From UHGV virus genome UHGV-0064883: a stretch of DNA of 64,000 nucleotides, one strand, 5' to 3'. A model generated the notes under the pieces. That model searched no databases. It saw only the letters and a program-made list of their open reading frames with translations, and was not told the DNA's origin. Every line of letters begins with the position of its first letter. The stretch's first letter is position 1. Shown here in pieces: positions 3,381-63,589 of this stretch. The stretch comes from a virus. Made by a program: the position numbers and the translations under genes.

Positions 3381-3416
3381 TTTCTTGCAATTCTAATCAT
3401 TGAATGATAAATTGAC
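3381..3416 (+). promoter_or_regulatory. Promoter-like box TTCTTGCAAT-N20-TAAATTGA
   Basis: Matches the TTG/N19-20/TAnnTT consensus seen about 10 times in the window. Followed by the leader AAAACCGAATTAGAAAGACCAAAACAATG, which is identical to the leader at 53686-53715. Confidence 0.55.
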
Positions 3417-3485
3417 TTTGTTGACGGGAGGTAAGGGACCAACCGAAAGCACAAAACAAAAAACCGAATTAGAAAGACCAAAACA

Positions 3486-3743
3486 ATGAACGCTGATAAA
3501 ACCTACAATGTAAGAGAAATCTTCACCACGAATTACTACGAAATCGTTGTCGCCGGAGAAGCGGTGAAGAATTATGATGAAGAAGGAAGAACTTACAACT
3601 TTTATTGCCCGGTGTGGGAAGCCCACGGCACGAGACATGGATTTGTCAGCGGCAATGTCTCCGAAGAGGATAAAGATTTTGATGATGTAAGAATCATCCT
3701 CGAAAAAGCGGAAGAATACAACTTGGTTGTAGGTTGGGACTAA
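3486..3743 (+). CDS. Small hypothetical protein (85 aa)
   Basis: ATG ORF behind the conserved promoter/leader cassette. Confidence 0.6.
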   Translation: MNADKTYNVREIFTTNYYEIVVAGEAVKNYDEEGRTYNFYCPVWEAHGTRHGFVSGNVSEEDKDFDDVRIILEKAEEYNLVVGWD

Positions 3744-3797
3744 AACAGCAAACGCCATTACGCTGAATAAATCAAAAACTGGAAAGGACAAAAGACA

Positions 3798-4121
3798 ATG
3801 AGCGCAGACAAAATCATCATCACGGAAGACGGCGAAGAAATCAATCTGACTACTCTTGAACGCGAGTTCGGCAGCTATCAGTTTGAGGGCAAGACCTACT
3901 ATGCCACGCGTCAAATGGAGTTTACCAACCGCGAGTTCCTGGGATGTTTCGAGGAAGCGGAAGAAGGAGAAGAATACGTCTCCGAATATTCCGCCCCCGG
4001 ATATGACGAAAACGGAAACCCCGTGGAAATCTTCATGATGTTCACGGAAATAAAAGGCGAAGAGGTGGACCCGGAAAACCTTAACCGGTTCCAGGACGCC
4101 GACCGCGTTGAAGTCCGCTAA
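3798..4121 (+). CDS. Small acidic hypothetical protein (107 aa)
   Basis: ORF with a GGAAAGGA purine-rich stretch upstream. Confidence 0.55.
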   Translation: MSADKIIITEDGEEINLTTLEREFGSYQFEGKTYYATRQMEFTNREFLGCFEEAEEGEEYVSEYSAPGYDENGNPVEIFMMFTEIKGEEVDPENLNRFQDADRVEVR

Positions 4122-4150
4122 TTATTTTACACCACAAAAACTACTCCGAT

Positions 4151-4726
4151 ATGAACATTCTCATTTCCGTCGAAACCTTTGAATCCATCGCCGCTTCCGT
4201 TCTGGAAGCCATACGCCCCATTACGGAATGGAGCTACCAGGGAACGCCCCAGTATTACGCTGATGACATTTCCTTTTTCGCCTATGATTCCAGATTGGAC
4301 GATGCCGAGCTTTCCACCGAGGCGGATTCCCTCGCCATCTACTTTGACACGGCGGGCGTAAAGGAATCTGTTGTTGACCGGATTTACAGCGCCATTGTTG
4401 ATGAGTTTTCCCGCCGTGGAATCCGTCTGACCCGTTCCGGGGATATCGACGGCGGCAGTCAGGGACTGTTGTACGATGTCAGCCTCATGGCCGCCCGGAA
4501 AGTGCCGAAAACGGTCGGGGAGTTCGTCAGCTGGGTGCAGGCGGATTATCGCCTTCCCGATAAGCCCGCCGCCGTGAAAAAGGCGGCCGAACTGATGAAA
4601 GTAAAAGAAATAACCGTATGGGAATGGATGAAAGGAGCGCGGCAGGTATCTCCCTCCATGCTCCTGCTTATGGAATTTATCGCTTCGATATATGCCCCGG
4701 CGGAGCGTCCCGGTATTTCCGACTGA
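4151..4726 (+). CDS. Hypothetical protein (191 aa)
   Basis: ORF followed by the hairpin terminator at 4751. Confidence 0.55.
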   Translation: MNILISVETFESIAASVLEAIRPITEWSYQGTPQYYADDISFFAYDSRLDDAELSTEADSLAIYFDTAGVKESVVDRIYSAIVDEFSRRGIRLTRSGDIDGGSQGLLYDVSLMAARKVPKTVGEFVSWVQADYRLPDKPAAVKKAAELMKVKEITVWEWMKGARQVSPSMLLLMEFIASIYAPAERPGISD

Positions 4727-4750
4727 AACGGAAATAATTCAGCCGCCCCC

Positions 4751-4795
4751 GATATGAGGGCGGCTGATTAAAGCCTTTTTGCTTATCTGGATGCC
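4751..4795. terminator. Possible bidirectional intrinsic terminator between convergent genes
   Basis: Stem CAGCCGCCC/GGGCGGCTG with a 9-nt loop, then ..GCCTTTTTGC. Confidence 0.5.
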
Positions 4796-5007
4796 GCCGC
4801 CGCACCGATGCCCATCAGGACGACGGCAATAAAGTAGATAAGGGCAATGCCGATGTTGATGATAAATATTGCCATTATCATGTTGGATATTTTACTGCAC
4901 ACCCGTATCAGCTGGTCAAGTCTGCTGACAAGAAGATAGGTGTCCTGCGGTTGTAGTCTGATGTTAGGTTCCATGTTGTCTATGGGTGGGGGTTGTCTGT
5001 CCGGCAA
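4783..5007 (-). CDS. Possible small membrane protein (up to 74 aa; start uncertain)
   Basis: Minus-strand ORF with a hydrophobic segment IMAIFIINIGIALIYFIAVVLMGIGAAAA. Confidence 0.25.
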   Translation of the reverse strand: MPDRQPPPIDNMEPNIRLQPQDTYLLVSRLDQLIRVCSKISNMIMAIFIINIGIALIYFIAVVLMGIGAAAASR

Positions 5008-5132
5008 ACGGTTCGCCGGGGTAGCTCTATGTGCTGGCCGGCTGCGTTATTTGTCAACCATATTCCACATTTCTTCCCCCGTATCGGCATGTTTTTTCTT
5101 TCTTTTCCGCCCGGAAGCCCTATGTTGGCGGC

Positions 5133-5540
5133 ATGATTAGTCTTCTCGGCATTTTTGATGCTCCGCCGGATTGGAGCAAGGGCACTATTTACTGCATTGG
5201 GCAAAAATCCGATAGTTGGAGCAAGCCCGATTCCTACCGCCTTTCCGACATCCCGGAACAGCACCGGGAAGCGCTCGCGTCCATTGTCAAAGGATTCACC
5301 ATGTTGAGCGACGAGTGGTACTGCACGCAGTTCTGGGCTGCATTCTCCTACCGCATGGAGACAGTGGAATCGGAATCCGGGGAACAGGAATCAACGCGCG
5401 TTCCCGGCATTGCCATCCGCATGGAGTGCCGGCATAAGGACACAGGGGCCTTGAGATTGCTGACCCCTAAAGACAATCCGGCCCTGTGGCTCACCGACAG
5501 CGCGTCAATGGCGTTGTACTCGGCTCTGTGCGACGATTGA
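5133..5540 (+). CDS. Hypothetical protein (135 aa from first ATG; the ORF opens with GTG at 5031)
   Basis: ORF track entry 5031..5540; first in-frame ATG at 5133. Confidence 0.45.
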   Translation: MISLLGIFDAPPDWSKGTIYCIGQKSDSWSKPDSYRLSDIPEQHREALASIVKGFTMLSDEWYCTQFWAAFSYRMETVESESGEQESTRVPGIAIRMECRHKDTGALRLLTPKDNPALWLTDSASMALYSALCDD

Positions 5541-5557
5541 TTACGTCTTTCTGCGAA

Positions 5558-5574
5558 TTTGCAATCATTGCAAA
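5558..5574. promoter_or_regulatory. 17-bp palindrome TTTGCAATCATTGCAAA followed by a T7 run
   Basis: 18 nt after the stop at 5540 and upstream of the sulfation operon. Confidence 0.8.
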
Positions 5575-5624
5575 TTTTTTTCGCACTCTCATGAGTGCGT
5601 GGATTGAAACTGCAACACCAGCCT

Positions 5625-6290
5625 ATGAGCGTTTTTACCTATCCGGTCGAGGGCCTTCGCCGCGTGCTGATTCCGCAGAAATGCGGCTGGACGCTAGCCT
5701 GGGATTCCCTCCCCCGCTGGAACGGTCGGGTGGTGATTGACTCCAATGACTACCCCGCGAAAAATCTGGACTGCATGTTTGTCAGGGAGCCGGTGGCCCG
5801 GTTCATGTCCGCTTTCCGGAACAAGATAGAGTTCGGGCCGCAGTCCTACCCCAAAAACGCCAACGGTCAGTTCAACGTCTGGTCCGGCATCCAATGGGTT
5901 GCCTGTGTGTGCGGCATCCCCCCGGACCTGGTGCAGAAGCAGGTTACTGTGTCCCTGATGCTGGACGTGTTGGAGGACATCATCAAAAAAAAACCGAGGG
6001 CGGCGCAATACAACCACGCCGTACTTGACCTGCACTGGTCCCCGCAGGTCTATCATGTGGCCCCCGGCCATATTCCGGAACTGCTCATTGACCCCCGGAA
6101 CGATTTTTCCGTCCTGGACAGATTAAAAATTGACTACTCTACGCACAATCACAATAATACCAGCCGTTATGGAGGCTACCAGCCTACACCGGAAGAGGTC
6201 GCACGCATCAAGGCCCTGTATGCCGAGGATGTAGCACTTTACGCCAGATACCAGCATGATTACGCCCTTCGCCAGTTACCCGCCCAGTGA
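5625..6290 (+). CDS. Sulfotransferase, PF03567-like (Sulfotransfer_2 family)
   Basis: IPQKCGWT matches the 5'-PSB PAPS-binding motif (P-K-x-G-x-T). MFVREPVARFMSAFRNK matches the 3'-PB motif (V-R-d-P-x-x-R-x-x-S-a-Y/F-r-n-K). Start taken at the first ATG, 5625; the ORF opens at GTG 5595. Confidence 0.7.
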   Translation: MSVFTYPVEGLRRVLIPQKCGWTLAWDSLPRWNGRVVIDSNDYPAKNLDCMFVREPVARFMSAFRNKIEFGPQSYPKNANGQFNVWSGIQWVACVCGIPPDLVQKQVTVSLMLDVLEDIIKKKPRAAQYNHAVLDLHWSPQVYHVAPGHIPELLIDPRNDFSVLDRLKIDYSTHNHNNTSRYGGYQPTPEEVARIKALYAEDVALYARYQHDYALRQLPAQ

Positions 6291-7107
6291 CGCCCCGGAG
6301 TTCATCAAATACTCCCACCACCTGATTGACCTCGCCTTGAGAAAAGCCCGGCGTCCGGCCATCCTCTGTTCCTACGGCAAGGATTCCGGCGTTGTCCTGC
6401 ATTTGCTCTCCCAGCACGTCGATTTATCCCGCATCGACGTTATTTACATTGATTCCACTTTTGAATTCCCGGCGTTTTACAAGCACATTGCCGGGATGAA
6501 AGCCTTTTTCGGCATCCGGCACGGCGGCCCTCATGACGTGCACTGCCAGAATAACCAGGCCATCCGTTCCGGCATGTCCTACGACAACACCCCGGTGCTC
6601 AAGTTGACGCAGACCCTGAAAACCGACGTATTGGTGCAGGTGCTGAAAGAGCGAAATATTGACTTTCTGTTCACCGGCATCCGGCGCGACGAAGAGGGTT
6701 CCCGTGCCAAGGAACGCTATTTCTCCTACCGGGAAGCCGACGGCACGTTTGACCCGGTAAGCAACCGCCCCGGATTCTATCCGCTGGACGGGCTGGATGT
6801 GCAGTCCCCCGGTTCCGGGCATTACCGCGTCAATATCCTTCTGGGCTGGTCGGAGCGGGACGTGTGGGAATACACGGAAAAGCACCTGCTTCCCGTCTGC
6901 CCGCTGTACCTTGCCAAAGACGGAAAGCGCTACCGCTCCCTTGGAGACGAGCCGGTGACTACTCCGGTGGATTCCGACGCTGACAGCATCGACAAAATCA
7001 TCAAGGAGCTGTACCATACCAGCGTGCCGGAACGGGCATGCCGGAAATCACAGGACAATTCCGCGCCGTACGCAATGGAGATGCTGCGGCGCAAGGGATT
7101 CTGCTAA
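6256..7107 (+). CDS. cysD: Sulfate adenylyltransferase subunit 2 (CysD; PAPS-reductase/PP-loop family)
   Basis: LCSYGKDSGVVLHLL (PP-loop SxGxDS), FTGIRRDEEGSRAKERYFSYRE, LGWSERDVWEYTEKHLLPVCPLY and RSLGDEPVTTPV align closely with the bacterial CysD blocks [49 protein letters not shown]...VPLY and RTLGCWPLTGAV. Confidence 0.85.
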   Translation: MITPFASYPPSDAPEFIKYSHHLIDLALRKARRPAILCSYGKDSGVVLHLLSQHVDLSRIDVIYIDSTFEFPAFYKHIAGMKAFFGIRHGGPHDVHCQNNQAIRSGMSYDNTPVLKLTQTLKTDVLVQVLKERNIDFLFTGIRRDEEGSRAKERYFSYREADGTFDPVSNRPGFYPLDGLDVQSPGSGHYRVNILLGWSERDVWEYTEKHLLPVCPLYLAKDGKRYRSLGDEPVTTPVDSDADSIDKIIKELYHTSVPERACRKSQDNSAPYAMEMLRRKGFC

Positions 7108-7137
7108 CAGTTCCATTTTTTCCTTTCCGCTCTTGCC

Positions 7138-7860
7138 ATGATACCGGATGACCCGTTCACCCAGCCGGAAAAAAAACCTGAAAAGCCGGGAGGCATCACG
7201 CAAATCTGGATAGGCGGAGAAGATAATATACCGCAGGAAATGCGGGAATGGATGTCCGGGGTGCGGGCCTACTGCAACCAGTTCAACCTTCCGTACCGCT
7301 GTTTGAACGGGAGGCAATGCAAGGCTCTGCTGGATGAGTTCGGCATCCCGTTCAATCCTACCGGGGGCATCATGAGCCTGACCGACATGGCGCGGGTGTG
7401 TGCCCTGAAAAAATGGGGCGGCTGGTATCTGGACACAGACGTAAAAATCCAGCGTCCGGCAGCCTTCCATGATTACTCGGTTTCTGTCTGCGAACAGGAG
7501 CCTTCTACTGTTTTTTACAATGCCATCACCTACGGCTGGATGTACAATCACGGAGTGCTTTATGCCTCCGGGGACGATTCCTGCCTGTTCCTGGATGCCA
7601 TGCTGGACGCGTGCCGGGAGACGTACAAGACAGTCCATGCTTCCGATTCCGGGTGGGGGCTGGAAAGCACCGTTCAGAATATGGTGCATCATGACCGCCA
7701 ATGGGTAGGCTGGCATCAAGGACTGCCAAAGGGCGTTTGCGATTGCGGCAATCCGTCCAGCATGATTAACCATGTGCTTTATGGGACCTGGTACAATAGC
7801 GCACACATGACTCCCGGCATCAAGGACGCGGAAACTTATTCAAAGGTTTCCGATTTGTAG
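7138..7860 (+). CDS. Glycosyltransferase, GT32-like (Och1/TcdA-type DXD sugar transferase)
   Basis: WIGGE...LTDMARVCALKKWGGWYLDTDV matches the GT32 signature (sD..R...L.k.GG.Y.D.D). Confidence 0.7.
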   Translation: MIPDDPFTQPEKKPEKPGGITQIWIGGEDNIPQEMREWMSGVRAYCNQFNLPYRCLNGRQCKALLDEFGIPFNPTGGIMSLTDMARVCALKKWGGWYLDTDVKIQRPAAFHDYSVSVCEQEPSTVFYNAITYGWMYNHGVLYASGDDSCLFLDAMLDACRETYKTVHASDSGWGLESTVQNMVHHDRQWVGWHQGLPKGVCDCGNPSSMINHVLYGTWYNSAHMTPGIKDAETYSKVSDL

Positions 7861-7909
7861 TCCGGAATAATTTTTGCAAAAAAGAAAAAACAATGGTAAT
7901 ACGTAGCGC

Positions 7910-8761
7910 ATGCCACGTGAAAAAATCATCATTGCCGTGTGCGGAATCCCTGACACGGGAAAAAGCACTTTTATCGCCAACGCCGCGAAACACCTGAACG
8001 GAATGGAGGTCCAGCCGGATGCCCTGTGCGTAGAGCAGCAGACCGGGAAAACCATTGCAACCTCATTCATCACCACCTGGGGCGAAGAGTGGCAGCGGGA
8101 CGGAAAAACCTGCGATTTGGTCTTTGTGGACTGCCCCGGCCATGTGCAGTTCCTTCCGGAGATTGTCGCGGGCTTGTCTGCGGCCCATGCCTACATTGTC
8201 ATCCATGACGCTTCCCGCATTGAGGCGAGCCAGGCATATGCCCGGATGCTGGAAGATGTCGCAGGCGTGCTTGGCGTGCCTCGGCTCGCCACCCTCTACA
8301 GCCATTGCGACAGCACCGGGGAATACTGCTACAACGTGGGTGTTGACAACCGGCTTCCGGGAATTGCCGAAAGGGTTATCCGGCGTGCCCTGGCGGGCGG
8401 CAAAGATAAGCTGGTTCATCCCACGGCATCCTGGCTTGGCTACATCCGGCAGGAGCCGTTCGATACGCCTGATGCCCGGCACAGGGTGTCCGTCATCTGG
8501 CTTCCCTGCGCTTCCCGGCTCACTCCGGTTTCCCTTCTCCGGGCAGAGCTTCCCGACCGAACGGTCGAACTCGGAGAGGCTGGCTCCGTTCTAGACCCCA
8601 TCCCCAGGGAAAGCGACTTCCAGACCGCCCCATTGATACGGCACATTTACCTGCAATTCCCTGTCCGGTATCTGGACCCCGTGCGCTTCCTGATTTGCGA
8701 CTCGGAGCTGGGAACGGTCGGAGTCGGAACAGTAACCCCGTGGGAAACCCAAATGTTATGA
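7910..8761 (+). CDS. CysN/EF-Tu-like GTPase (283 aa; truncated, divergent putative sulfate adenylyltransferase subunit 1)
   Basis: G1 CGIPDTGKST and G3 DCPGHVQF (DxPGH) match translation-factor/CysN GTPases. No canonical NKxD motif. Adjacent to cysD. Its stop overlaps the next start (ATGA). Confidence 0.55.
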   Translation: MPREKIIIAVCGIPDTGKSTFIANAAKHLNGMEVQPDALCVEQQTGKTIATSFITTWGEEWQRDGKTCDLVFVDCPGHVQFLPEIVAGLSAAHAYIVIHDASRIEASQAYARMLEDVAGVLGVPRLATLYSHCDSTGEYCYNVGVDNRLPGIAERVIRRALAGGKDKLVHPTASWLGYIRQEPFDTPDARHRVSVIWLPCASRLTPVSLLRAELPDRTVELGEAGSVLDPIPRESDFQTAPLIRHIYLQFPVRYLDPVRFLICDSELGTVGVGTVTPWETQML

Positions 8762-8979
8762 GCAACGTAGCTATCCCATACCAGCCCCACGACTGCCCCG
8801 TCTGCGGAAAGAACCTCTGCTACAGCGCCGGAAAGGACGGCTGCTATTATTCCTGCCCGGAATGCAGGTATTCCGTCCAGTCCGGTGCGACCCTGCAAGA
8901 AGCACAAAGGCATCTTTTCATCTTTGCGGCGGCAGTCCTCAAAAACCAGAACACGCAACACGACACCATCACCCAATGA
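8758..8979 (+). CDS. Small zinc-ribbon protein (73 aa)
   Basis: CPVCGKNLCYSAGKDGCYYSCPECRY contains two CxxC pairs. ATGA overlap with the upstream gene and with cysC downstream. Confidence 0.5.
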   Translation: MSNVAIPYQPHDCPVCGKNLCYSAGKDGCYYSCPECRYSVQSGATLQEAQRHLFIFAAAVLKNQNTQHDTITQ

Positions 8980-9479
8980 TTATTCTTCTCACCGGCGAAA
9001 GCGGCGTCGGAAAAACGTCTGTGGCAAAAACCCTGATGAACCGGCATCCGGGCATCCTTCTCGACGGCGACGACATGCGGGACGGATTGAACAGCGACCT
9101 TGGGTTTTCCGACCAGGACATCATGGAGAACATGCGCCGGGCGGCGCACATAGCCGTACTGCTGCATGACCAGCTTCCGGAAGACCGGCGCACGGTTTAC
9201 ATCACCTGCATTGCCCCGCTGCTGGCCGGAAGGAATCTGGTGCATGAGCTGTGCGGTTCCCGGTTGTGGGAGATTCGCATCCAGTATGATTACCGGGCTT
9301 CCGACGACGTAAAAGGGTTGTACAAGGCGGGAACCCCCATGCGGGCCTACGAAGAGTACCCCAGCGAAACGTTGCTGCTCCCCCGCCGGATAAACCGCGT
9401 GTACCGGTACTACAACGATACCGTGTGCGCTCTGGCCGCCAAAATAGAAAAGCTGTGGCCTGCGGACAAAACCGCTTGA
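8976..9479 (+). CDS. cysC: Adenylylsulfate (APS) kinase CysC
   Basis: ILLTGESGVGKTSVAKTL (P-loop), LLDGDDMRDGLNSDLGFSDQDIMENMRRAAHIA and KGLYKAGTPMRAYEEYP match the APS-kinase motifs TGLSGSGKST, LDGDNvRhGLnkDLgFsdeDR.ENiRR and KGLYkkAr.g....FTGi. Confidence 0.9.
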   Translation: MIILLTGESGVGKTSVAKTLMNRHPGILLDGDDMRDGLNSDLGFSDQDIMENMRRAAHIAVLLHDQLPEDRRTVYITCIAPLLAGRNLVHELCGSRLWEIRIQYDYRASDDVKGLYKAGTPMRAYEEYPSETLLLPRRINRVYRYYNDTVCALAAKIEKLWPADKTA

Positions 9480-9547: not shown

Positions 9548-9588
9548 CTCCCTTCCCTTGGCGCTCTAAGGGGAGGGAGTTTTTTTTG
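9548..9588 (+). terminator. Rho-independent terminator closing the sulfation operon
   Basis: Stem CTCCCTTCCC...GGGGAGGGAG followed by T8. Confidence 0.85.
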
Positions 9589-9615
9589 CGCTGATGTCCG
9601 TATCTTCCGCCCCAA

Positions 9616-9632
9616 TTTGCAATGATTGCAAA
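9616..9632. promoter_or_regulatory. 17-bp palindrome, centre-G variant TTTGCAATGATTGCAAA, followed by T7
   Basis: Read directly from the sequence. Confidence 0.8.
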
Positions 9633-9654
9633 TTTTTTTCGGCAATCCTGAATT

Positions 9655-9724
9655 TTTATCTTGCAATTTTTAAAAAGAAAGGTATGATGAAGGCATCAAA
9701 GGGAGGAAAAAGCGAATCTCCCTT
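9655..9724 (+). promoter_or_regulatory. Promoter-like box ATCTTGCAAT-N19-TATGATGA plus leader hairpin CATCAAAGGGAG-GAAAAAGCGAAT-CTCCCT
   Basis: Same cassette architecture as at 51501, 53611, 62631 and 63491. Confidence 0.55.
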
Positions 9725-9757
9725 TTAAAGAAAAAACTGAAACATACCTGCACTACA

Positions 9758-11780: not shown

Positions 11781-11814
11781 TTGACTGTACCCGGATAAAA
11801 AAACCTTTTTGAAA

Positions 11815-11831
11815 TTTGCAATCATTGCAAA
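11815..11831. promoter_or_regulatory. 17-bp palindrome TTTGCAATCATTGCAAA
   Basis: 35 nt after the stop at 11780. Confidence 0.8.
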
Positions 11832-11873
11832 TTTCGGAACCAACAACACCAACCATAGCAACTCAATATTAAC

Positions 11874-16443: not shown

Positions 16444-16466
16444 CGTTTTTTCCGTGGTATTGAAAA

Positions 16467-16483
16467 TTTGCAATCATTGCAAA
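16467..16483. promoter_or_regulatory. 17-bp palindrome TTTGCAATCATTGCAAA
   Basis: Between the stop at 16443 and the start at 16494. Confidence 0.8.
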
Positions 16484-16493
16484 AATACCCGCC

Positions 16494-19448: not shown

Positions 19449-19464
19449 CCGAAAGCCCGGCAAA

Positions 19465-19481
19465 TTTGCAATGATTGCAAA
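19465..19481. promoter_or_regulatory. 17-bp palindrome, centre-G variant TTTGCAATGATTGCAAA
   Basis: 17 nt after the stop at 19448. Confidence 0.8.
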
Positions 19482-19660
19482 TTCGTTTGTATGGACTGAA
19501 AATGATTATATAGACTTGTTCCTTGCTTCCGTCTTTTGGCGTTTGCCCTATGGTCAGATAGTTCCCTCCCGCGAGGGCCGGGAACCCTGAAAACTTCCTG
19601 TGGTTTTCAGGAGCATCACCATCAAGCAGGACAAAAACCAAATAGAAAGACAGCACAAAA

Positions 19661-23498: not shown

Positions 23499-23501
23499 AA
23501 A

Positions 23502-23518
23502 TTTGCAATCATTGCAAA
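23502..23518. promoter_or_regulatory. 17-bp palindrome TTTGCAATCATTGCAAA upstream of the capsid gene
   Basis: 4 nt after the stop at 23498. Confidence 0.8.
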
Positions 23519-23676
23519 TTTTATTGACGGCCTACTGCCCCTTTGTTAGTCAAACGTTAAGCACATGCGTATTTTTTACATGCAGCGCGTCCAGAAATCC
23601 GCGAAAGTACGGCGGCTGTCTGTGAGGAATGATTGCAGCATTTTCGCTTAACAGTCTAACCGCTACAAAAAAAACA

Positions 23677-29514: not shown

Positions 29515-29533
29515 CTTTGATTCTTCCCGCGAA

Positions 29534-29550
29534 TTTGCAATCATTGCAAA
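29534..29550. promoter_or_regulatory. 17-bp palindrome TTTGCAATCATTGCAAA
   Basis: 20 nt after the stop at 29514. Confidence 0.8.
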
Positions 29551-29576
29551 TCGTCCATCCAACCGCACAATCTACT

Positions 29577-33534: not shown

Positions 33535-33548
33535 TGTGATATTAGAAA

Positions 33549-33565
33549 TTTGCAATCATTGCAAA
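33549..33565. promoter_or_regulatory. 17-bp palindrome TTTGCAATCATTGCAAA
   Basis: 15 nt after the TMP stop. Confidence 0.8.
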
Positions 33566-33574
33566 TCAGGAATT

Positions 33575-37267: not shown

Positions 37268-37305
37268 TGTATCTTGATGCCTTCATCATAGCTATCTTTT
37301 TAAAA

Positions 37306-37320
37306 ATTGCAAGATAAAAA
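37306..37320 (-). promoter_or_regulatory. Minus-strand copy of the TTTTTATCTTGCAAT promoter-like box
   Basis: Plus strand reads ATTGCAAGATAAAAA. Confidence 0.5.
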
Positions 37321-37340
37321 TACACATTCCGCGAGAAAAA

Positions 37341-37357
37341 TTTGCAATCATTGCAAA
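37341..37357. promoter_or_regulatory. 17-bp palindrome TTTGCAATCATTGCAAA between divergent genes
   Basis: Read directly from the sequence. Confidence 0.8.
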
Positions 37358-37410
37358 TTTCAGAAATCAATGTTGCCCATGAAAATTCAGGCGGCTATAG
37401 TGTCAAAGAC

Positions 37411-40172: not shown

Positions 40173-40189
40173 CGGGAAAATATTCTCAA

Positions 40190-40206
40190 TTTGCAATCAT
40201 TGCAAA
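40190..40206. promoter_or_regulatory. 17-bp palindrome TTTGCAATCATTGCAAA at the edge of the AT-rich region
   Basis: Read directly from the sequence. Confidence 0.8.
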
Positions 40207-40720
40207 CCGGAAAAACCGGTGATTCAAGGCCGTAATTCTACGGTCTTTTTTATTTGTCAATATTGTTTTTTACGTTTTTATAACTTATTGAGCATCATTT
40301 GGTTGCAAATAGTATGCACCAAGAAATTTCTAGTTTAGTTATTTGTCATTGAGTATTAGATACTTACAAATAATTTGCACTTTTATAAGTTCAGGGCATT
40401 TGCAGGCGTTTGAGTATCAATAAGTTATAAATGCACTAAATCCGGAAAAACGCGCTGAATCCGCAATGGGTGCAAATATAACCAGCTGATTATCATATCA
40501 TTGTGCATAACTTGCACTTGCGCGGAAGTGCATTTATTTTACAAACTACTGAAAATGAACAGGTTATAAAGACAACCAGAAGGGAAAAACGTCAATTTTT
40601 GTTTTTATAAGTCATTGAACTATATGAAATTATAAAAAATTTGCACTTTGGGAGTGCATTAATATATATATATATATAATGTTCGTTCCTCACATTAATA
40701 TATATCTATATTCTCCGTCC
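40207..40720. repeat. ORF-free AT-rich region with repeated TTATAA, (A)ATTTGCAC and TTGCAAAT elements and a (TA)8 run at about 40662-40680
   Basis: GC content is visibly far below the flanks. No ORF of 60 aa or more. Repeats counted by eye. Confidence 0.7.
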
Positions 40721-41904: not shown

Positions 41905-41940
41905 ATGTCTTGCAATTTTTTTGTGTTGTGGGTATAGTTC
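41905..41940 (+). promoter_or_regulatory. Promoter-like box TGTCTTGCAAT-N20-TATAGTTC
   Basis: Consensus match. Overlaps the endolysin stop. Confidence 0.45.
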
Positions 41941-41944
41941 TCTC

Positions 41945-42154: not shown

Positions 42155-42161
42155 TCGAAAA

Positions 42162-42178
42162 TTTGCAATCATTGCAAA
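42162..42178. promoter_or_regulatory. 17-bp palindrome TTTGCAATCATTGCAAA
   Basis: 8 nt after the stop at 42154. Confidence 0.8.
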
Positions 42179-42212
42179 TTTTCATAATCCATAGCTATCG
42201 AGGGATAACATC

Positions 42213-43925: not shown

Positions 43926-43960
43926 TGTCTTGCAATTCTTAAATTAAAAGGGTATATTAT
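43926..43960 (+). promoter_or_regulatory. Promoter-like box TGTCTTGCAAT-N20-TATATTAT ending 5 nt before the ATG at 43965
   Basis: Consensus match. Implies a leaderless or near-leaderless transcript. Confidence 0.45.
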
Positions 43961-43964
43961 TGAC

Positions 43965-45127: not shown

Positions 45128-45135
45128 GCCTGAAA

Positions 45136-45152
45136 TTTGCAACGATTACAAA
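45136..45152. promoter_or_regulatory. Degenerate palindrome copy TTTGCAACGATTACAAA
   Basis: Two mismatches from the consensus. Confidence 0.5.
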
Positions 45153-45162
45153 AATCAACAAC

Positions 45163-51440: not shown

Positions 51441-51461
51441 CTGGTATTCTCTTCCTGTGAA

Positions 51462-51478
51462 TTTGCAATGATTGCAAA
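51462..51478. promoter_or_regulatory. 17-bp palindrome, centre-G variant, followed by T7
   Basis: 22 nt after the polymerase stop. Confidence 0.8.
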
Positions 51479-51500
51479 TTTTTTTCGTGAATTGAATACT

Positions 51501-51560
51501 TTTATCTTGCAATTTTCATTTTTTAGTGTTATAACAAACCCATCAAAGGGCGAAAGCCCT
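51501..51560 (+). promoter_or_regulatory. Promoter-like box TTTATCTTGCAAT-N20-TATAACAA plus leader hairpin CATCAAAGGGC-GAAA-GCCCT
   Basis: Cassette consensus. Confidence 0.55.
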
Positions 51561-51583
51561 GAATCAATAAAAACATCACCAAT

Positions 51584-52852
51584 ATGAGCAAGACCGAAAT
51601 TGATATTACCAAGCCGCTTAATCTGGCTGACCGCCAAGAACTCCGTTTTATCGGATATGCCACGCAGAATAACGACCCGAAGCTGTCTCCGGGGGATGTC
51701 ATCTATTTTCTGAAACAGGCGCGGGACGATAAAAACATCCCTGTTTATGACGTTGCCACTACCAAAAAGGGCAAGGTAGCCGTGGAAAGTCTTTACGCTG
51801 ACGAATTTGAAGTTGTGGATGCGGATTCCGCGCCGGAAGTCGCCCCGGTTGCGGCCCCTGCCAAAAAGAAAAAGACGGAACTCAAGAAGGTGGAGGAACC
51901 CGGCGAAGAGCAGCCCGCCCCCAAGGCTAAGAAGGCCAAAGCCGTCAAAGCGGAAGCTGCCCCTGCCAAGAAGACCAAGAAGGAAAAAGTGAAGGCCGAA
52001 GCCCCCGTGGAAGTGCAGGAGCCGCAGGAAGTCCAGGAACCTGCAGCTGAGGTTGAATCCGTTCCCGCCGTCCAGCCCGAAGCCGTCAAGGAGGTTGAAG
52101 ACATCAAGCCCGCCTCCACTCCGGAATTGGGAATGGATGCCGTAACCCTTAACTTGATTCAGGAACACGGCGGGAATGCCTGTGCCGCCGCCCTTGCCAT
52201 TGCCAAGGATTCTGAGGCTAAGCGATTCCTTCTTGGCGGCGTGCTGCTGTACATTCAAAAAACAAAAGTTTATGAAGAAGAAAAGGATTCTGCCGGAGTT
52301 CCACGCTTCACCGGGCAAAAGGGCTTTGCCATGTTTTGCGAGCAATACATCGGGCTTTCCTACTCTTCCGCAAAATTGTACCAGCGCATCTATGCTAATT
52401 TTACCAGCATGGGCCTCGGTGTTGAGGATTTTCGGAGAGTGGGTACGGCTAAGGCCCGTGAAATTGTGCAAATGATTGAGCTGGATTTTTCCAAGGCTGA
52501 TGTCGAAGAGGCTATTCATATCGGCGAAACGAAAACGCACGAAGAACTGCACTCCCATGTGAGCTCGAAAATGCAGGATGCTGAAATTGAGGGGCATGGA
52601 CTGCGTGATAAAGTCAAATGCACGCTCTACAAATTCGAGGTGTTTGCCGACCAGGAAGACATCATCAACGCCGCCATCCGGCTGGCAATGGACAACGGGG
52701 ACATCAAGGACACCGATCAGAACGCCCTTGGACGCGCGTTTGTTTCCATTTGCTCCGACTATTTGCAGGCATATAGCAAAGTGGCGCAGCCGACGGTGGA
52801 CGAAACTGAAGAATTTCAGGAATCTGTAGCCCAGGAATCCGTCAATGCCTGA
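51584..52852 (+). CDS. Hypothetical protein with a histone-H1-like K/A/P/E-rich central linker (422 aa)
   Basis: PAKKKKTELKKVEEPGEEQPAPKAKKAKAVKAEAAPAKKTKKEKVKAEAP low-complexity region. Confidence 0.5.
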   Translation: MSKTEIDITKPLNLADRQELRFIGYATQNNDPKLSPGDVIYFLKQARDDKNIPVYDVATTKKGKVAVESLYADEFEVVDADSAPEVAPVAAPAKKKKTELKKVEEPGEEQPAPKAKKAKAVKAEAAPAKKTKKEKVKAEAPVEVQEPQEVQEPAAEVESVPAVQPEAVKEVEDIKPASTPELGMDAVTLNLIQEHGGNACAAALAIAKDSEAKRFLLGGVLLYIQKTKVYEEEKDSAGVPRFTGQKGFAMFCEQYIGLSYSSAKLYQRIYANFTSMGLGVEDFRRVGTAKAREIVQMIELDFSKADVEEAIHIGETKTHEELHSHVSSKMQDAEIEGHGLRDKVKCTLYKFEVFADQEDIINAAIRLAMDNGDIKDTDQNALGRAFVSICSDYLQAYSKVAQPTVDETEEFQESVAQESVNA

Positions 52853-53561
52853 CATTTCCAGATTTCGGTCTGAACTGGCTCGTTTCTTTTCGGAGGACGG
52901 GCCAGGCTCCCAGCCTACCTTCCCTGATGCCTGCGAGGGCGACTTGTGCCTATGGACGGACGGGTCAGCTCTTGGAGACGCAAGGCAACTGGGAACTGGC
53001 GGAGGTTCCGCTTTTGCAGTGACAATAGTAGCCGGAGGCGTGGAGCATTATGTAGCCTCCTACGCGGAGCGCCTGGAGCCACAATCGGATTCCGATTGCG
53101 GGGTGACGGTAAACTACGCGGAAATCAAGGCTATCCATAACGGGCTTTCCTACCTCCAAAAATTGGACGGGGCCGAGGACAAGACCATCCATGTGTTTTC
53201 CGATTCCGCTTACGCCGTTTCCGTCCTGTCCAAATGGGTCCATCGCTGGGAACGGTCGGAGCGTACTTTGGAATCCGTAGCAAAATCCGGCTGGTTGTGC
53301 GCCGACGGGTGGCCTGTGGCTAACGCCCGGCTGATAAAAGATACGCACCGGCTGAGAGTGGAATTTTTCCGGGTTGTGTATCATAAGATCGCCGGGCATT
53401 CTGGGTACTTTTTTAACGAGCATGCCGACCATCTGGCATCCATCGCCAGAAACGGTCAGCTTTCTGACGCGCTGGTTGCGGATTATAATTGGCAGGGCCA
53501 GCGAATAAAATCGGTGCGCTTTGATTACGCAACCGGAAAAGTGGTGCTGGAAGAGTATTAG
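52845..53561 (+). CDS. rnhA: Ribonuclease HI
   Basis: LWTDGSALGD...GGGSAFAV, VNYAEIKAIHNGL, HVFSDSAYAVSVLSKWVHRW, HKIAGHSGYFFNEHADHLA (RNase H D-E-D-D signature GH.G...NE.AD.LA). Confidence 0.8.
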   Translation: MPDISRFRSELARFFSEDGPGSQPTFPDACEGDLCLWTDGSALGDARQLGTGGGSAFAVTIVAGGVEHYVASYAERLEPQSDSDCGVTVNYAEIKAIHNGLSYLQKLDGAEDKTIHVFSDSAYAVSVLSKWVHRWERSERTLESVAKSGWLCADGWPVANARLIKDTHRLRVEFFRVVYHKIAGHSGYFFNEHADHLASIARNGQLSDALVADYNWQGQRIKSVRFDYATGKVVLEEY

Positions 53562-53570
53562 CGTTTTCAA

Positions 53571-53587
53571 TTTGCAACGATTGCAAA
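53571..53587. promoter_or_regulatory. 17-bp palindrome, centre-CG variant TTTGCAACGATTGCAAA, followed by T7
   Basis: Read directly from the sequence. Confidence 0.75.
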
Positions 53588-53610
53588 TTTTTTTCTCAAA
53601 AAGATTCTTT

Positions 53611-53671
53611 TTTCTCTTGCAATTCATCAAAAATAATGCTAACTTATATTCATCAAAGGGAGGGAATCCCT
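53611..53671 (+). promoter_or_regulatory. Promoter-like box TTTCTCTTGCAAT-N20-TAACTTAT plus leader hairpin CATCAAAGGGAGGGAATCCCT
   Basis: Cassette consensus. The leader 53686-53715 is identical to 3459-3488. Confidence 0.55.
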
Positions 53672-53712
53672 AAGAGAAAAAACCTAAAAACCGAATTAGA
53701 AAGACCAAAACA

Positions 53713-54042
53713 ATGATTATCTCCATGAACCCTTACGATAACTGGAAGATTGAAGTTAGCGAATTTTCCCATCTCAATCTGGGCATCGAAGGTGATTCCA
53801 CAACGCTTGAAGATGAATCCGATGTTGCCTGGCTTCAAAATAAAATAGAATCCCGGCTGGAAACGTTGGGAGACCAGATTGACGCGAACCCCGGAGATAA
53901 AACTCTGGAAGGCGACATGGAAGAGTTGGAAGAAGCGCTGGAAGACCTTGCTGCCGCCCGCGAAGAGCAGGAAGCCTACGAAATTAGGGAAGCCGAAGAA
54001 TTTCTTCAGGAACGATATGAAGAATGCTGCTACGCTTATTGA
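53713..54042 (+). CDS. Small acidic hypothetical protein (109 aa)
   Basis: ATG ORF behind the cassette. Confidence 0.55.
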   Translation: MIISMNPYDNWKIEVSEFSHLNLGIEGDSTTLEDESDVAWLQNKIESRLETLGDQIDANPGDKTLEGDMEELEEALEDLAAAREEQEAYEIREAEEFLQERYEECCYAY

Positions 54043-55630: not shown

Positions 55631-55665
55631 TTTCTTGCAATAAAAAAATATCATGCTTAATATTT
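55631..55665 (+). promoter_or_regulatory. Promoter-like box TTTCTTGCAAT-N20-TAATATTT
   Basis: Consensus match. Confidence 0.45.
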
Positions 55666-55731
55666 CATTGTTCCCATCATGGAACATCAGTAAAAAAACA
55701 ATACTCCCATTGGAGACATTAAAAAAATAAT

Positions 55732-58751: not shown

Positions 58752-58762
58752 CTCTTTTCCAA

Positions 58763-58779
58763 TTTGCAACGATTGCAAA
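58763..58779. promoter_or_regulatory. 17-bp palindrome, centre-CG variant, followed by T7
   Basis: 12 nt after the stop at 58751. Confidence 0.75.
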
Positions 58780-58813
58780 TTTTTTTCGCAAAAACCAGAA
58801 ACAGAAATAAACC

Positions 58814-61999: not shown

Positions 62000-62565
62000 A
62001 CATCCTCGGCATTGACCCGTCCCTGACTGCCACCGGGCTTTATTTGCGGGAAACCGGGCTTATGGCCGCCCCGGAATCCACGCTGATTGCCCCAAAAAAT
62101 TTGAGGGACATGGAGCGGCTGTGTTTTATCCGCGACTTCCTTCTCGGATTCATCAACAGAGACCGGGCGTTTTTTCCCGAATTGGCGGTCATTGAAGGGT
62201 ACGCAATGGGGGCGAAAACCCATACGCACGACCTCGGAGAAGCCGGAGCCATGCTGAAAACTGCGGTTTACGAGGCGGGAATTGACCTGCTGATAGTCCC
62301 GCCCGCCACGCTGAAAAAGTTCATCACGGGAAGCGGGAACAGCAAAAAACAAGTGATGATGGTGGAAGCGCTTTCTCGGTATCATGTTAAAATCACCGAT
62401 GATAATATTTGTGATGCGTTCTGCCTGACACACTTTGGGGAAGCCTGGTACGCGGCTAATGCTTTTGGCCGTACAGCGGGAGGAATCGGCATCACAAAAA
62501 GCCAGTATGCCTGCCTGTCCGCTGCCCGGCTGGTTCCTGGCCGCAAACGGTCGTCTCGGAGATAA
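61996..62565 (+). CDS. ruvC: RuvC-family Holliday-junction resolvase
   Basis: MNILGIDPSLTATGLYL, LAVIEGYAMG, KKFITGSGNSKKQVMMVEAL, DDNICDAFCLTHFG fit RuvC catalytic motifs (ILGIDPG...TG; E..f; K..vtG.G.A.K.QV; DaaDAlAvA). Confidence 0.85.
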   Translation: MNILGIDPSLTATGLYLRETGLMAAPESTLIAPKNLRDMERLCFIRDFLLGFINRDRAFFPELAVIEGYAMGAKTHTHDLGEAGAMLKTAVYEAGIDLLIVPPATLKKFITGSGNSKKQVMMVEALSRYHVKITDDNICDAFCLTHFGEAWYAANAFGRTAGGIGITKSQYACLSAARLVPGRKRSSRR

Positions 62566-62592
62566 CCGGCTGCCGGTTTTTCCTTTTTTCAA

Positions 62593-62609
62593 TTTGCAAT
62601 CATTGCAAA
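62593..62609. promoter_or_regulatory. 17-bp palindrome TTTGCAATCATTGCAAA followed by T7
   Basis: Read directly from the sequence. Confidence 0.8.
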
Positions 62610-62630
62610 TTTTTTTCGCTGACTGTGTAA

Positions 62631-62694
62631 TTTTATCTTGCAATTTCTAAAAAATAATGCTAAATTGCATTCATCAAAGGGAGGGAAACCTCCC
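62631..62694 (+). promoter_or_regulatory. Promoter-like box TTTTATCTTGCAAT-N20-TAAATTGC plus leader hairpin CATCAAAGGGAGGGAAACCTCCC
   Basis: Cassette consensus. Confidence 0.55.
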
Positions 62695-62730
62695 AAGAAT
62701 AAAAAACCTAAAAACCTGAAAGACAAGATT

Positions 62731-62943
62731 ATGAATAACAAAGAAACATTCTATCTGGTTGAAGTTTACCACCTCGGAACCGCTGTTGGCAGCCTTATTT
62801 CCCTTGACCATGTGCACCGCTGCAAGTCCCTGGAATCTGCGAAAGATTTCGGTTCCATCATGAAAGAAAAAAATGGGTGGTTTGAAGTAACGGAAATCAC
62901 TTCCGAAGGCCGTTCCATTGTGTTTGATTCCCGCAACAACTAA
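62731..62943 (+). CDS. Small hypothetical protein (70 aa)
   Basis: ATG ORF behind the cassette. Confidence 0.5.
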   Translation: MNNKETFYLVEVYHLGTAVGSLISLDHVHRCKSLESAKDFGSIMKEKNGWFEVTEITSEGRSIVFDSRNN

Positions 62944-63187
62944 CCCGTCAAGACAATGAAAGTACAAGCTAAAATTATCACCGAACAGGAGTACAAATGG
63001 TACGGGGGTTGCCCCTCAAGATGCGGAACACGGAATGGGAAAATCGGTATAAAGAAAACGGCATTAAGTTTGAAACCCGCGTGAATATCTAAAATCCTCA
63101 AGCCCCTCTTTGGAGGGGCAAGACCCCTCCACCGCAACCAGAAAAACTTTTCAGCAGTAAAAATTTTCGGTGGTACTAATTAGGTTC

Positions 63188-63233
63188 TGCCCCTTTTCCG
63201 GCCTTTCGTTGCTGGGAAGGGGGCAGTTTTTTT
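63188..63233 (+). terminator. Rho-independent terminator
   Basis: CTGCCCCTTT...AAGGGGGCAG stem plus T7. Confidence 0.7.
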
Positions 63234-63399
63234 GCGTCAATTTGTAGTGGTATTTTTAATTTTAGCGCACAAATAACTATATATTGCGGCTATTTTCGTA
63301 AACGGTTGACTTTAAGAAAAATAAACTCTTGAACCGGTTTGACGGCAAGTTAAGATGCCGGAGGTTAAACACTAGTTTGGCTGTCTTCTATCTTTTCGA

Positions 63400-63440
63400 C
63401 CCCTAATTCGGAGTGATGCCCGGATTAGGGGCCTTTTTTT
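63400..63440 (+). terminator. Rho-independent terminator
   Basis: CCCCTAAT-16 nt-ATTAGGGG plus T7. Confidence 0.75.
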
Positions 63441-63445
63441 CTCCA

Positions 63446-63462
63446 TTTGCAATGATTGCAAA
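63446..63462. promoter_or_regulatory. 17-bp palindrome, centre-G variant, followed by T7
   Basis: Read directly from the sequence. Confidence 0.8.
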
Positions 63463-63490
63463 TTTTTTTCTCAAAAAAGATTCTTTTTTC

Positions 63491-63547
63491 TCTTGCAATT
63501 TCTAAAAAAGAATGATAAATTACATTCATCAAAGGGAGGGAATCCCT
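63491..63547 (+). promoter_or_regulatory. Promoter-like box TCTTGCAAT-N20-TAAATTAC plus leader hairpin CATCAAAGGGAGGGAATCCCT
   Basis: Cassette consensus. Confidence 0.55.
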
Positions 63548-63589
63548 GAGAGAGAAAAACAAAAAACCTAAAAAACCTGTTAGACTAAA

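Follow-up and report, generated by a model that had tools for sequence, protein, structure and literature searches.

Predicted promoter cassettes and a dispersed 19-bp dyad at gene boundaries of an uncultured Bacteroidales siphovirus

Introduction

T4-like myoviruses carry small cassettes in which a stem-loop or terminator is joined to an early promoter (PeSLs); these near-identical repeats stand before small ORFans in variable regions (Arbiol 2010, PMC2839356; Comeau 2014, PMC4122927), and in T4-type phages the indels between close relatives end within them (PMC4122927). Cassettes of analogous build are found in the UHGV virus genome UHGV-0064883, of which a stretch of 64,000 nucleotides (the window, i.e. 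the whole of the DNA analyzed) is described here. They combine a 9-mer, TCTTGCAAT (the box), present in ten copies, with predicted -7 elements, and six of the ten are preceded by a 19-bp palindrome, ATTTGCAAT-S-ATTGCAAAT (the dyad). The TCTTGCAAT units are probably promoters for the host RNA polymerase carrying its primary sigma factor, set inside composite cassettes that recombine. They are like PeSLs in joining a stem-loop to an early promoter within near-identical repeats, in standing before small ORFans of variable regions and in bounding indels, but there is no sequence homology, and PeSLs belong to T4-like myoviruses whereas the phage here is a Bacteroidales siphovirus. The place of the stem-loop is taken here by a 19-bp dyad, AT-rich and invariant in sequence, which is found by itself at 13 further gene boundaries and sometimes behind a separate terminator, and the predicted transcripts bear a conserved 5' hairpin. 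On this comparison the cassettes would be a PeSL analogue and not a member of that family.

Primary-sigma promoters of Bacteroidota have the form -33 TTTG / -7 TAnnTTTG (PMC6847099 and its references), and in F. johnsoniae the -7 element spans T-12, A-11 ... G-5, with T-8, T-7, T-6 and G-5 nearly invariant (PMC6847099). The units share with these promoters the positions of TTG and TA, an AT-rich spacer, A-rich leaders without a Shine-Dalgarno site and a Bacteroidales host; they differ in reading CTTGCAAT and not TTTG, in essentially lacking T-6 and G-5, and in fitting the sigma-70 consensus about equally well.

Dispersed dyads have also been described. Cluster O mycobacteriophages carry the 17-bp dyad repeat TGTTCGG-NNN-CCGAACA in >30 copies per genome, its function unexplained (PMC4351075). 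The present dyad resembles it in its many dispersed copies, invariant arms, variable centre, absence of an orientation rule, bias to gene boundaries and restriction to one lineage. It differs in sequence and host phylum, in the intergenic share (~14-24/34 in Corndog vs 19/19 here), in the fixed distance of six copies from a promoter and in a centre that is a single C/G flipping between strains; by these features it appears to be closer to the Cluster O repeat than to a terminator. The stoperators of L5-type (Cluster A) phages (PMC9283540) are likewise dozens of identical protein sites, mostly in short intergenic gaps and acting on transcription, but they are 13 bp long and asymmetric, point in the direction of transcription and are recognised by the monomeric immunity repressor of a temperate phage, whereas the repeat here is a symmetric dyad. 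A palindrome with a central C/G that is repeated in a mobile element is also reminiscent of KorB/ParB sites, and the phage encodes two ParB_N proteins, although their genes lie outside the window and have no DNA-binding domain assigned, so that the link is putative. The OB site of RK2 KorB, TTTAGC-S-GCTAAA, is a perfect palindrome with a central C/G, present in ~12+ copies at and away from promoters.

The predicted promoters

Exact matches to TCTTGCAAT number ten in the window, as against 0.69 expected and a maximum of 4 in dinucleotide-preserving shuffles, which agrees with the earlier sequence-only reading of about ten boxes, one of them on the minus strand; the sites are the same as in that reading, whose coordinates lay 0-5 nt too far left because a T-rich prefix was included. 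The plus-strand copies are at 3383, 9659, 41908, 43928, 51505, 53615, 55633, 62636 and 63491, and the single minus-strand copy occupies 37306-37314. Equal frequency in coding DNA, which would speak against a promoter element, is not seen: all ten copies are intergenic, each facing a downstream open reading frame (ORF), and intergenic DNA makes up ~10% of the window. Among strains ~97% identical (IMG/VR), the box shows mismatches in 0/216 site-by-strain comparisons, whereas the same strains diverge by 3.4% at other intergenic sites and by 6.0% at third codon positions.

Start sites were predicted by applying the T-12/A-11 numbering established in F. johnsoniae (PMC6847099) to each unit. TTG then falls at -35..-33 in 10/10 units, with a shift of one base towards +1 in the two whose gap to TA measures 15 nt. 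Between the last base of the 9-mer and TA there are 15-16 nt, equivalent to the 19-20 nt given previously provided that counting begins at the G of TTG. In seven units (9695, 51542, 53652, 62673, 63528 and 37278 on the minus strand, plus strain variants) the start is predicted on the A of cATCAA(A)G, with CA at -1/+1, and in units 41908 and 43928 on the A of the ATG itself. Two separate units with predicted +1 on the ATG, together with the common CA at -1/+1, are good internal evidence for promoters.

The class of promoter is less clear from the motif. The full TTTG at -33 occurs in 0/10 units, the base before TTG being C (CTTG), so that the element reads as given above. TA at -12/-11 is present in 10/10 units, T-7 in 9/10 and T-8 in 5/10, i.e. 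the -7 element is kept only as TAnnTT or TAnnnT and does not conform to the TAnnTTTG consensus from F. johnsoniae (PMC6847099). Compared with sigma-70 promoters, TTGCAA matches 4/6 bases at -35 and the -10 hexamers 3-5/6 (mean 4.4) with a spacer of 16-17 nt, and the TTGCAA-16/17-TAnnnT units match the consensus at 8-9/12 positions. A sigma-70 scan at a threshold of 9/12 flags two cassettes, units 9661 and 37312; sigma-70-type sites overall show no enrichment (21 vs 16.2, 16 vs 15.0, 14 vs 10.9). Three canonical TTG-N19-TAATTTG-type sites, a better Bacteroidota match than the cassettes, lie in the non-coding region at 40.3-40.65 kb. Since both architectures have TTG at -35..-33 and TA at -12/-11, it does not follow from the motif that the units are of the Bacteroidota -33/-7 type and not of the E. 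coli-type -35/-10; the previous statement to that effect was correct in its TTG/TA geometry but overstated, as sigma-70 fits equally and T-6/G-5 are missing.

The units differ in the distance from predicted +1 to start codon. Unit 1 (3383..3485) has its box at 3383-3391, TAAATTGA as -7 box at 3408-3415 and a predicted +1 at 3420, followed by a hairpin (~3420-3450), an A-rich leader and the ATG at 3486 of an 85-aa ORFan; it lacks an upstream dyad. In unit 2 (9659..9757; box 9659-9667), TATGATGA at 9683-9690 precedes a +1 at 9695 (cATCAAAGGG), a hairpin at 9698-9725 and the ATG at 9758 of a 56-aa protein; this unit is one of those flagged by the sigma-70 scan. The sole minus-strand unit, unit 3 (37268..37314; box 37314-37306; TATGATGA 37290-37283; +1 at 37278, cATCAAG), has a 10-nt leader before ATG 37267 of a 122-aa ORFan. 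Units 4 (41908..41944; TATAGTTC 41933-41940) and 5 (43928..43964; TATATTAT 43953-43960) are predicted to be leaderless, with +1 on the A of ATG 41945 (69 aa) and of ATG 43965 (213 aa), respectively. Unit 6 (51505..51583) has its -7 element at 51530-51537, +1 at 51542, a GGGC-GAAA-GCCC hairpin at 51547-51560 and ATG 51584 (422 aa). Unit 7 (53615..53712; TAACTTAT 53640-53647; +1 at 53652; ATG 53713, 109 aa) has the hairpin AGGGA-GGGAA-TCCCT and the same final 27 leader nt as unit 1. Unit 8 (55633..55731; TAATATTT 55658-55665; ATG 55732, 341 aa) is without an upstream dyad and has a hairpin of a different type, GUUCC-CAUCAU-GGAAC. Unit 9 (62636..62730; TAAATTGC 62661-62668; +1 at 62673; ATG 62731, 70 aa) has the hairpin GGGAGG-GAAA-CCUCCC at 62679-62694 (-12.8 kcal/mol), and unit 10 (63491..63589; TAAATTAC 63516-63523; +1 at 63528) leads through a hairpin to ATG 63590 (89 aa). 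All of these except unit 3 are on the plus strand.

The downstream genes had been called mostly small, which holds for 7/10, the other three encoding the 213-, 341- and 422-aa proteins. PHROGs assigned no function to 8/9 of the cassette-driven proteins scanned. Homologues of the 422-aa protein all come from strains ~97% identical in DNA, no relatives of intermediate divergence being obtained. The lone minus-strand gene (36899-37267), a candidate regulator, has homologues within its own species only, and a single-sequence AlphaFold model of its product was unusable (pLDDT 36).

Transcript leaders and translation starts

Five units continue with CATCAAAGGG, as the sequence-only reading had noticed, the exact sequence standing at 9694, 51541, 53651, 62672 and 63527. 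In the leadered units a hairpin begins at +4 to +7 of the predicted transcript; its 5' arm is fixed (AAAGGGAG), and the 3' arm and loop vary among copies to give, e.g., GGGC-GAAA-GCCC, GGGAGG-GAAA-CCUCCC, AGGGA-GGGAA-UCCCU, GGGAGGG-AAUAA-CCCUCCU and forms with 8-12 nt loops. Units 3383 and 55633 have unrelated hairpins at the equivalent position. The loop had been described as GNRA-like, which is apt for only two variants with a true GNRA (GAAA) tetraloop, the remainder having loops of 5-12 nt. RNAalifold on 12 leader variants gave no consensus structure, the 3' arm changing register between variants, and per-sequence folding against shuffles was used in its place. Each of ten distinct leader variants, taken from the window and strain contigs, folds better than shuffles in which the 5' arm was held fixed (each p <= 0.036; combined Fisher p = 5e-14, the variants not being independent).

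After the hairpin comes an A-rich stretch, AAAAACCUAAAAACC..., without a Shine-Dalgarno site. The Shine-Dalgarno core is found upstream of 6/44 genes genome-wide, no enrichment over the 10% in random sequence, and the upstream regions of genes are A-rich and G-poor. The sequence at 3459-3488 is identical to that at 53686-53715 (27 nt + ATG) before proteins that differ, just as first described. The leader hairpin would act as a 5'-end stabiliser and the A-rich stretch would serve as a Bacteroidota-style translation start region, and the two units with +1 on the ATG would yield leaderless mRNAs.

A lambda nut-type antitermination site (boxA + boxB) was considered for the leader and rejected: a conserved linear part, CATCAAAG, exists, but the loops compared (GAAA, GGGAA, GAAAG, AAUAA, and loops of 8, 9 and 12 nt) are too different, and no N-like protein was found. 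Rfam returned nothing across the window at gathering thresholds, and for 62500-63650 at E <= 1 only sub-threshold chance matches.

The dyad

The strongest repeat of the window, overlooked in the sequence-only reading, is the 19-bp palindrome. It is present in 18 copies at <=1 mismatch (0.00 expected) and one degenerate copy, 19 in total; all 19 are intergenic and most begin 2-33 nt past a stop codon. Six dyads are the upstream half of promoter cassettes, their centres 71-74 bp before the predicted +1, and in these a T5-T7 run and then a T-rich spacer separate dyad from promoter. Thus 6/10 units carry a dyad and T-run 37-39 bp upstream of TTG, which is the PeSL-type arrangement, and four have no dyad. 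The full cassette runs in the order gene end, sometimes a GC-rich terminator, dyad, T5-T7, T-rich spacer and predicted promoter. The other 13 dyads are solitary between co-directional genes, some of them with only 9-14 nt left before the following ATG. A T5-T7 run on the transcribed strand comes after 8/19 dyads, 11/19 having no T-run.

The cassette dyads are those at 9615..9633 (ATTTGCAATGATTGCAAAT + T7; centre 71 bp upstream of the unit 2 +1, between terminator 9548-9579 and the promoter), 37340..37358 (centre at -71 of unit 3, the minus-strand unit; end 14 nt before the plus-strand ATG 37373), 51461..51479 (+ T7; beginning 20 nt past the DNA polymerase stop; centre at -72 of unit 6), 53570..53588 (CGA centre, + T7; -73 of unit 7), 62592..62610 (+ T7; -72 of unit 9, just past the terminator-like hairpin 62564-62578) and 63445..63463 (+ T7; -74 of unit 10, just past the canonical terminator 63400-63431). 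The solitary copy at 1420..1438 begins 8 nt past the stop of a 251-aa gene and recurs at 3089..3107 within an exact 1669-bp duplication. Further copies are at 5557..5575 (+ T7CGC, with no promoter box after it, heading the sulfation operon 5595-9479), 11814..11832 (between genes ending at 11780 and starting at 11874; with extended arms its hairpin reaches 15 pairs incl. G-U and -14 kcal/mol), 16466..16484 (last base A; beginning 22 nt past a stop and ending 9 nt before the ATG of a 746-aa head gene), 19464..19482 (15 nt past the stop codon at 19448), 23501..23519 (beginning 2 nt past a stop, with 109 nt between its end and the major capsid gene downstream), 29533..29551 (18 nt past the stop codon at 29514) and 33548..33566 (beginning 13 nt past the tape-measure stop, ending 11 nt before the next ATG). 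The dyad at 40189..40207 (last base C) marks an operon end and is followed by two hairpins + T6 and then a 650-bp non-coding region; that at 42161..42179 begins 6 nt past a stop and ends 33 nt before the AAA+ ATPase ATG; the degenerate copy at 45135..45153 (ATTTGCAACGATTACAAAA, 3 mismatches) is followed after 9 nt by an ATG and does not vary among 10 strain sequences; and that at 58762..58780 (+ T7CGC, no promoter box) has the centre CGA, TGA or TCA depending on the strain.

Strain differences within dyads number 15, of which 13 fall at the central base and 2 at the preceding base; the remaining 17 positions have none, against the 3.4% and 6.0% divergence at other intergenic sites and third codon positions. 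At the centre only C<->G changes occur, so that one and the same locus, such as the last-named, reads TCA, TGA or CGA in different strains. This is the signature that would be left by inversion of the palindrome centre through template switching, with arms that are strongly constrained or homogenised.

An intrinsic terminator, i.e. a stable GC-rich stem with a U-tract, is not what the dyad resembles: the core hairpin is worth -4.7 to -6.5 kcal/mol with 2 G-C pairs per arm, and terminator scans do not call dyads. Canonical GC-rich terminators are present separately on the plus strand, at 9548..9579 (14-bp stem + T8, 36 nt upstream of dyad 9615) and at 63400..63431 (12-bp stem + T-run, immediately upstream of dyad 63445), as is a terminator-like short hairpin at 62564..62578 (AACCGG-CTG-CCGGTT + T-rich tail, upstream of dyad 62592); the late-region canonical terminators at 20593, 25375 (after the capsid gene) and 30306 also form a set separate from the dyads. 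Because dyads 9615, 62592 and 63445 each lie after such a terminator and before the next +1, these copies are probably not transcribed. Degenerate dyads (45135 and two in contig L073) have C-A, A-G or C-U mismatches and no wobble pairs. The weak core, absent T-runs, separate terminators and non-wobble mismatches favour a protein-bound DNA site; the dyad is probably not a terminator and probably a site for a symmetric or dimeric protein. Such a protein would be phage-encoded and would act as a global regulator or boundary element. The half-site TTTGCAAT was also considered as the -33 of a hidden promoter and discarded, no copy having a TA-type -7 element at the required distance.

Gene exchange at the cassettes

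The same cassette precedes 15 unrelated ORF families across strains, i.e. it would have been copied before at least 15 unrelated ORFan families in those sampled. One such family, F11 (a 195-aa gene with a 584-bp body), is present in contigs L024, L030 and L039 between 62565 and 62636 and absent from the window, and both endpoints of this presence/absence difference fall inside two cassettes, as do the indels that characterise PeSLs. Contig L080 is without 52788-54032, comprising the RNase H gene, one cassette and the 109-aa ORFan; here the endpoints are near gene ends and not obviously in cassettes. As with the T4 PeSLs, homologous recombination between cassettes would add or remove whole genes.

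In a search for a shared late-promoter motif in the long intergenic gaps of the late region only one marginal candidate was found, TTTATTGAC, in 3 copies (21388, 23520 and 28500; 0.52 expected, 2/100 shuffles reaching 3). The three copies share the plus strand and each lies in an intergenic gap of this region, that at one site coming right after the dyad upstream of the capsid gene; the motif might be part of a late promoter. No phage RNA polymerase or sigma factor is present among Pfam/PHROG hits.

Distribution of the dyad among relatives

The exact dyad and cassette were found only in same-species contigs of the viral collection and IMG/VR; L027, L028, L037, L038, L041 and L042 are single chance matches in the viral collection scans. 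Among 185,579 bacterial species genomes the dyad gave 30 isolated single hits in unrelated taxa, none repeated, which argues against both a motif of a host regulon and a signature of prophages. When 24 kb were compared with cultured phages, megablast gave no match; tblastn against the same phages found the portal at 26-27% identity and the AAA+ ATPase at 35-40%, so that no annotated relative is available for comparison.

Portal homologues at 50-55% identity lead to syntenic phages that have dyads of their own, mostly in gaps between genes. That of L073 (42% GC) is AATTGCAAT-CA/TG-ATTGCAATT, which precedes both a 747-aa head gene and the capsid gene and also lies around a CTTGCAA promoter. In L077 and L078 it is TTGAAAA-S-TTTTCAA(A), which in L077 occupies in places the entire stop-to-start gap. 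The 87.7-kb IMG/VR contig behind L135, IMGVR_UViG_3300010399_000004, related via its helicase (45% identical) and RecA matches, has at least 8 TTGAAAA-S-TTTTCAA dyads in 14.5 kb, and L162 has 6. The L074 dyads (TTGCAAA-S-TTTGCAA) were not counted, being mostly inside called genes and with mismatches. Across phages the arm pairs are thus TTGCAAT/ATTGCAA, AATTGCAAT/ATTGCAATT and TTGAAAA/TTTTCAA. Given that relatives have their own versions, the dyad is a lineage feature whose two arms changed in step between phages.

The phage and its host

The phage is uncultured, ~85 kb in size and virulent-looking, with a siphovirus-like structural module (tape-measure protein, HK97-type portal); no repressor or integrase was found, Pfam detected no sigma factor, RNA polymerase or integrase among window proteins, and the window has no tRNAs that could be found. 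A Bacteroidales host is well supported by evidence that is in all cases indirect. One strain contig (L019) carries an IS21 element whose IstA and IstB are exact matches to Bacteroides intestinalis DSM 17393 and B. uniformis proteins, the phage has BACON and BACON_2 domains (the former already noted from the sequence) and no Shine-Dalgarno enrichment, and the record of one relative bears a human-gut label; the Bacteroidota assignment made earlier is upheld by the same facts. The IS21 element lies at 254-2603 of L019, at the contig edge and beside an apparently truncated TET-associated glycosyltransferase gene.

Alternative explanations

Several points weigh against host promoters adjoined by a protein-bound dyad. 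Promoter function is inferred from the DNA sequence alone, T-6 is present in 2/10 units and G-5 in 0/10, a poor fit to the Bacteroidota -7 consensus, and the -7 element of unit 51505 is TATAACAA. The box has TTGCAAT, 7/9 of its bases, in common with the dyad half-site ATTTGCAAT, and its conservation could therefore partly reflect binding of the dyad protein instead of contact with sigma. A cassette-type promoter was not found for most late operons, which leaves the transcription map incomplete. The hairpins show no classical compensatory covariation or double changes, because the 5' arm never varies. The mismatches of arm-degenerate dyads, which are evidence against a required hairpin, rest on three or four copies only. 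Pfam found no helix-turn-helix (HTH) protein in the window as a candidate dyad-binder, and the ParB_N proteins from outside the window and a Rep_O-like protein (Pfam; annotated in the loci of relatives) are leads only. The candidate ORF for the Rep_O-like protein, assigned by position and length against those loci, is 45794-46702. The two ParB_N proteins (330 aa at L006 6464-7456 and 179 aa at L006 2814-3353) keep the GxxRxxA motif and have no DNA-binding domain assigned, and their genes were not seen near the portal/terminase genes of dyad-carrying relatives.

If the dyad acted at the level of RNA, it would be either a PeSL-style terminator or attenuator, or an inter-cistron hairpin for mRNA stability, processing or translational coupling. 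Such a role would suit the usual start of dyads 2-33 nt past a stop, the T5-T7 that follows eight of them, the 15 pairs of copy 11814 and the whole stop-to-start gaps filled in L077, and the C<->G flips of the centre show that the DNA is able to form hairpins. It nonetheless appears rather unlikely, because the core is weak and 11/19 copies have no T-run, three copies between a terminator and the next +1 are probably untranscribed while GC-rich terminators are used elsewhere, structure alone needs no identical sequence in each copy, and degenerate copies show C-A, A-G and C-U mismatches and not wobble pairs. A different possibility is that TCTTGCAAT is kept mainly as a half-site for the dyad protein, or because it serves an alternative or phage-directed sigma as its -35 element, the units being factor-dependent. 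The 7/9 bases shared with the dyad arm, the invariance of CAAT where the known Bacteroidota -33 element is only TTTG (PMC6847099), and the weak -7 elements would be so explained. A dyad centre at -71 to -74 is also a typical upstream-activator position, as at class I CRP promoters. This reading is unlikely, however, since the -33-like box of L078, TTTGCAAAA, differs from the L078 dyad TTGAAAA-N-TTTTCAA, four units have no dyad at all, and no sigma factor was detected by Pfam/PHROG.

Host promoters in recombining cassettes thus continue to be the preferred reading, and two more alternatives appear very improbable. Near-identical copies, strain indels bounded by cassettes and an exact sequence confined to one species might be expected of selfish or neutral repeats without a regulatory role, such as recombination scars or elements like miniature inverted-repeat transposable elements (MITE) or repetitive extragenic palindromes (REP). 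But cassettes and dyads are strictly intergenic, strictly co-directional with genes and in exact start-codon register in the leaderless units; the arms are invariant against a neutral divergence of 3-6%, no transposase is associated, and analogous dyads occupy homologous gene boundaries in phages of 50-55% portal identity. Nor is there much to recommend a non-Bacteroidota host in which the units would be ordinary sigma-70-type promoters (TTGCAA-16/17-TAnnnT). The sigma-70 fit is about equal to the Bacteroidota fit, the scan flags 9661 and 37312, and the nearest cultured-phage AAA+ ATPase homologues come from Proteobacteria phages; against these stand the exact Bacteroides proteins of the IS21 element, BACON/BACON_2, the lack of Shine-Dalgarno sites, the three canonical TTG-N19-TAATTTG-type sites at 40.3-40.65 kb and the lack of enrichment of sigma-70-type sites.

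Significance of the cassettes

A tentative and broader proposal is that a lineage of ~85-kb Bacteroidales siphoviruses may run an undescribed genome-wide regulatory system. Each phage would have at least 20 of its own 15-23-bp dyads at gene or operon boundaries, with arms that co-vary, read by a matching phage-encoded dimeric protein (perhaps ParB/KorB-like or Rep_O-like) that activates or insulates early promoters from ~-72 and partitions late operons. The invariant arms, the C/G-flipping centre and the lineage-specific versions point to a specific recognition system, whose components might be found by matching the dyads of the relatives to their candidate proteins.

The promoters and leaders of gut Bacteroidales phages are almost unmapped, and the cassettes represent ten or more natural promoter/5'-UTR (5' untranslated region) parts whose differences are well defined (presence or absence of a leader and of the dyad, type of hairpin) and which could serve as genetic parts in Bacteroides. 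Shuffling of genes by PeSL-like cassettes, known from T4-like phages, extends to an unrelated lineage and a different host phylum.

Other features of the genome

The genome outside the window (~20 kb, from the 83.6-kb IMG/VR contig L006, with the ParB_N region at 2814-7456) encodes TerL, a TET-associated glycosyltransferase, the two ParB_N proteins and an N6 methyltransferase, and relative L078 has a Tet_JBP gene at 1-135. The phage DNA is therefore probably hypermodified at cytosines. The operon at 5595-9479, between two dyads, encodes a sulfotransferase, a CysD-like PAPS_reduct protein, a glycosyltransferase, a CysN-like GTPase and an APS kinase and looks like an auxiliary sulfation pathway.

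Bases 1-1669, starting at window base 1, are an exact copy (0 mismatches) of 1670-3338, related strains being single-copy; the repeat may reflect a genuine tandem duplication, an artefact of assembly or the mark of a genome terminus. The duplicated unit contains a 9-bp tandem repeat, AAAACGTGT AAAACGTGT AAAACATGT AAAATATGT, at 512-547 and 2181-2216. The 650 bp of non-coding DNA at 40208-40850 is rich in TGCAC/GTGCA repeats and includes a (TA)n run near 40664-40682 as well as three 45-nt repeats (40278, 40339 and 40605), one of which is a near-perfect Bacteroidota promoter, TTG-N19-TAATTTGCAC; it may be a replication origin or a regulatory hub. The AAA+ ATPase gene (42213-43886) has in L026, L080, L081 and L083 an 825-bp insert at 43142/43143 that looks like an intein or homing element, the product being called as 832 aa vs 557 aa in the window, which like L082 is without the insert. 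A stretch of 500 bp with no convincing ORF, 62944-63444, contains strong canonical terminators at 63187-63226 and 63400-63431 and ~180 extra bases in some strains; its product might be a small RNA or else a protein of very small size. Finally, a 1.17-kb non-coding gap in L073 (11309-12476) contains a tRNA-looking sequence and other structured-looking RNA.

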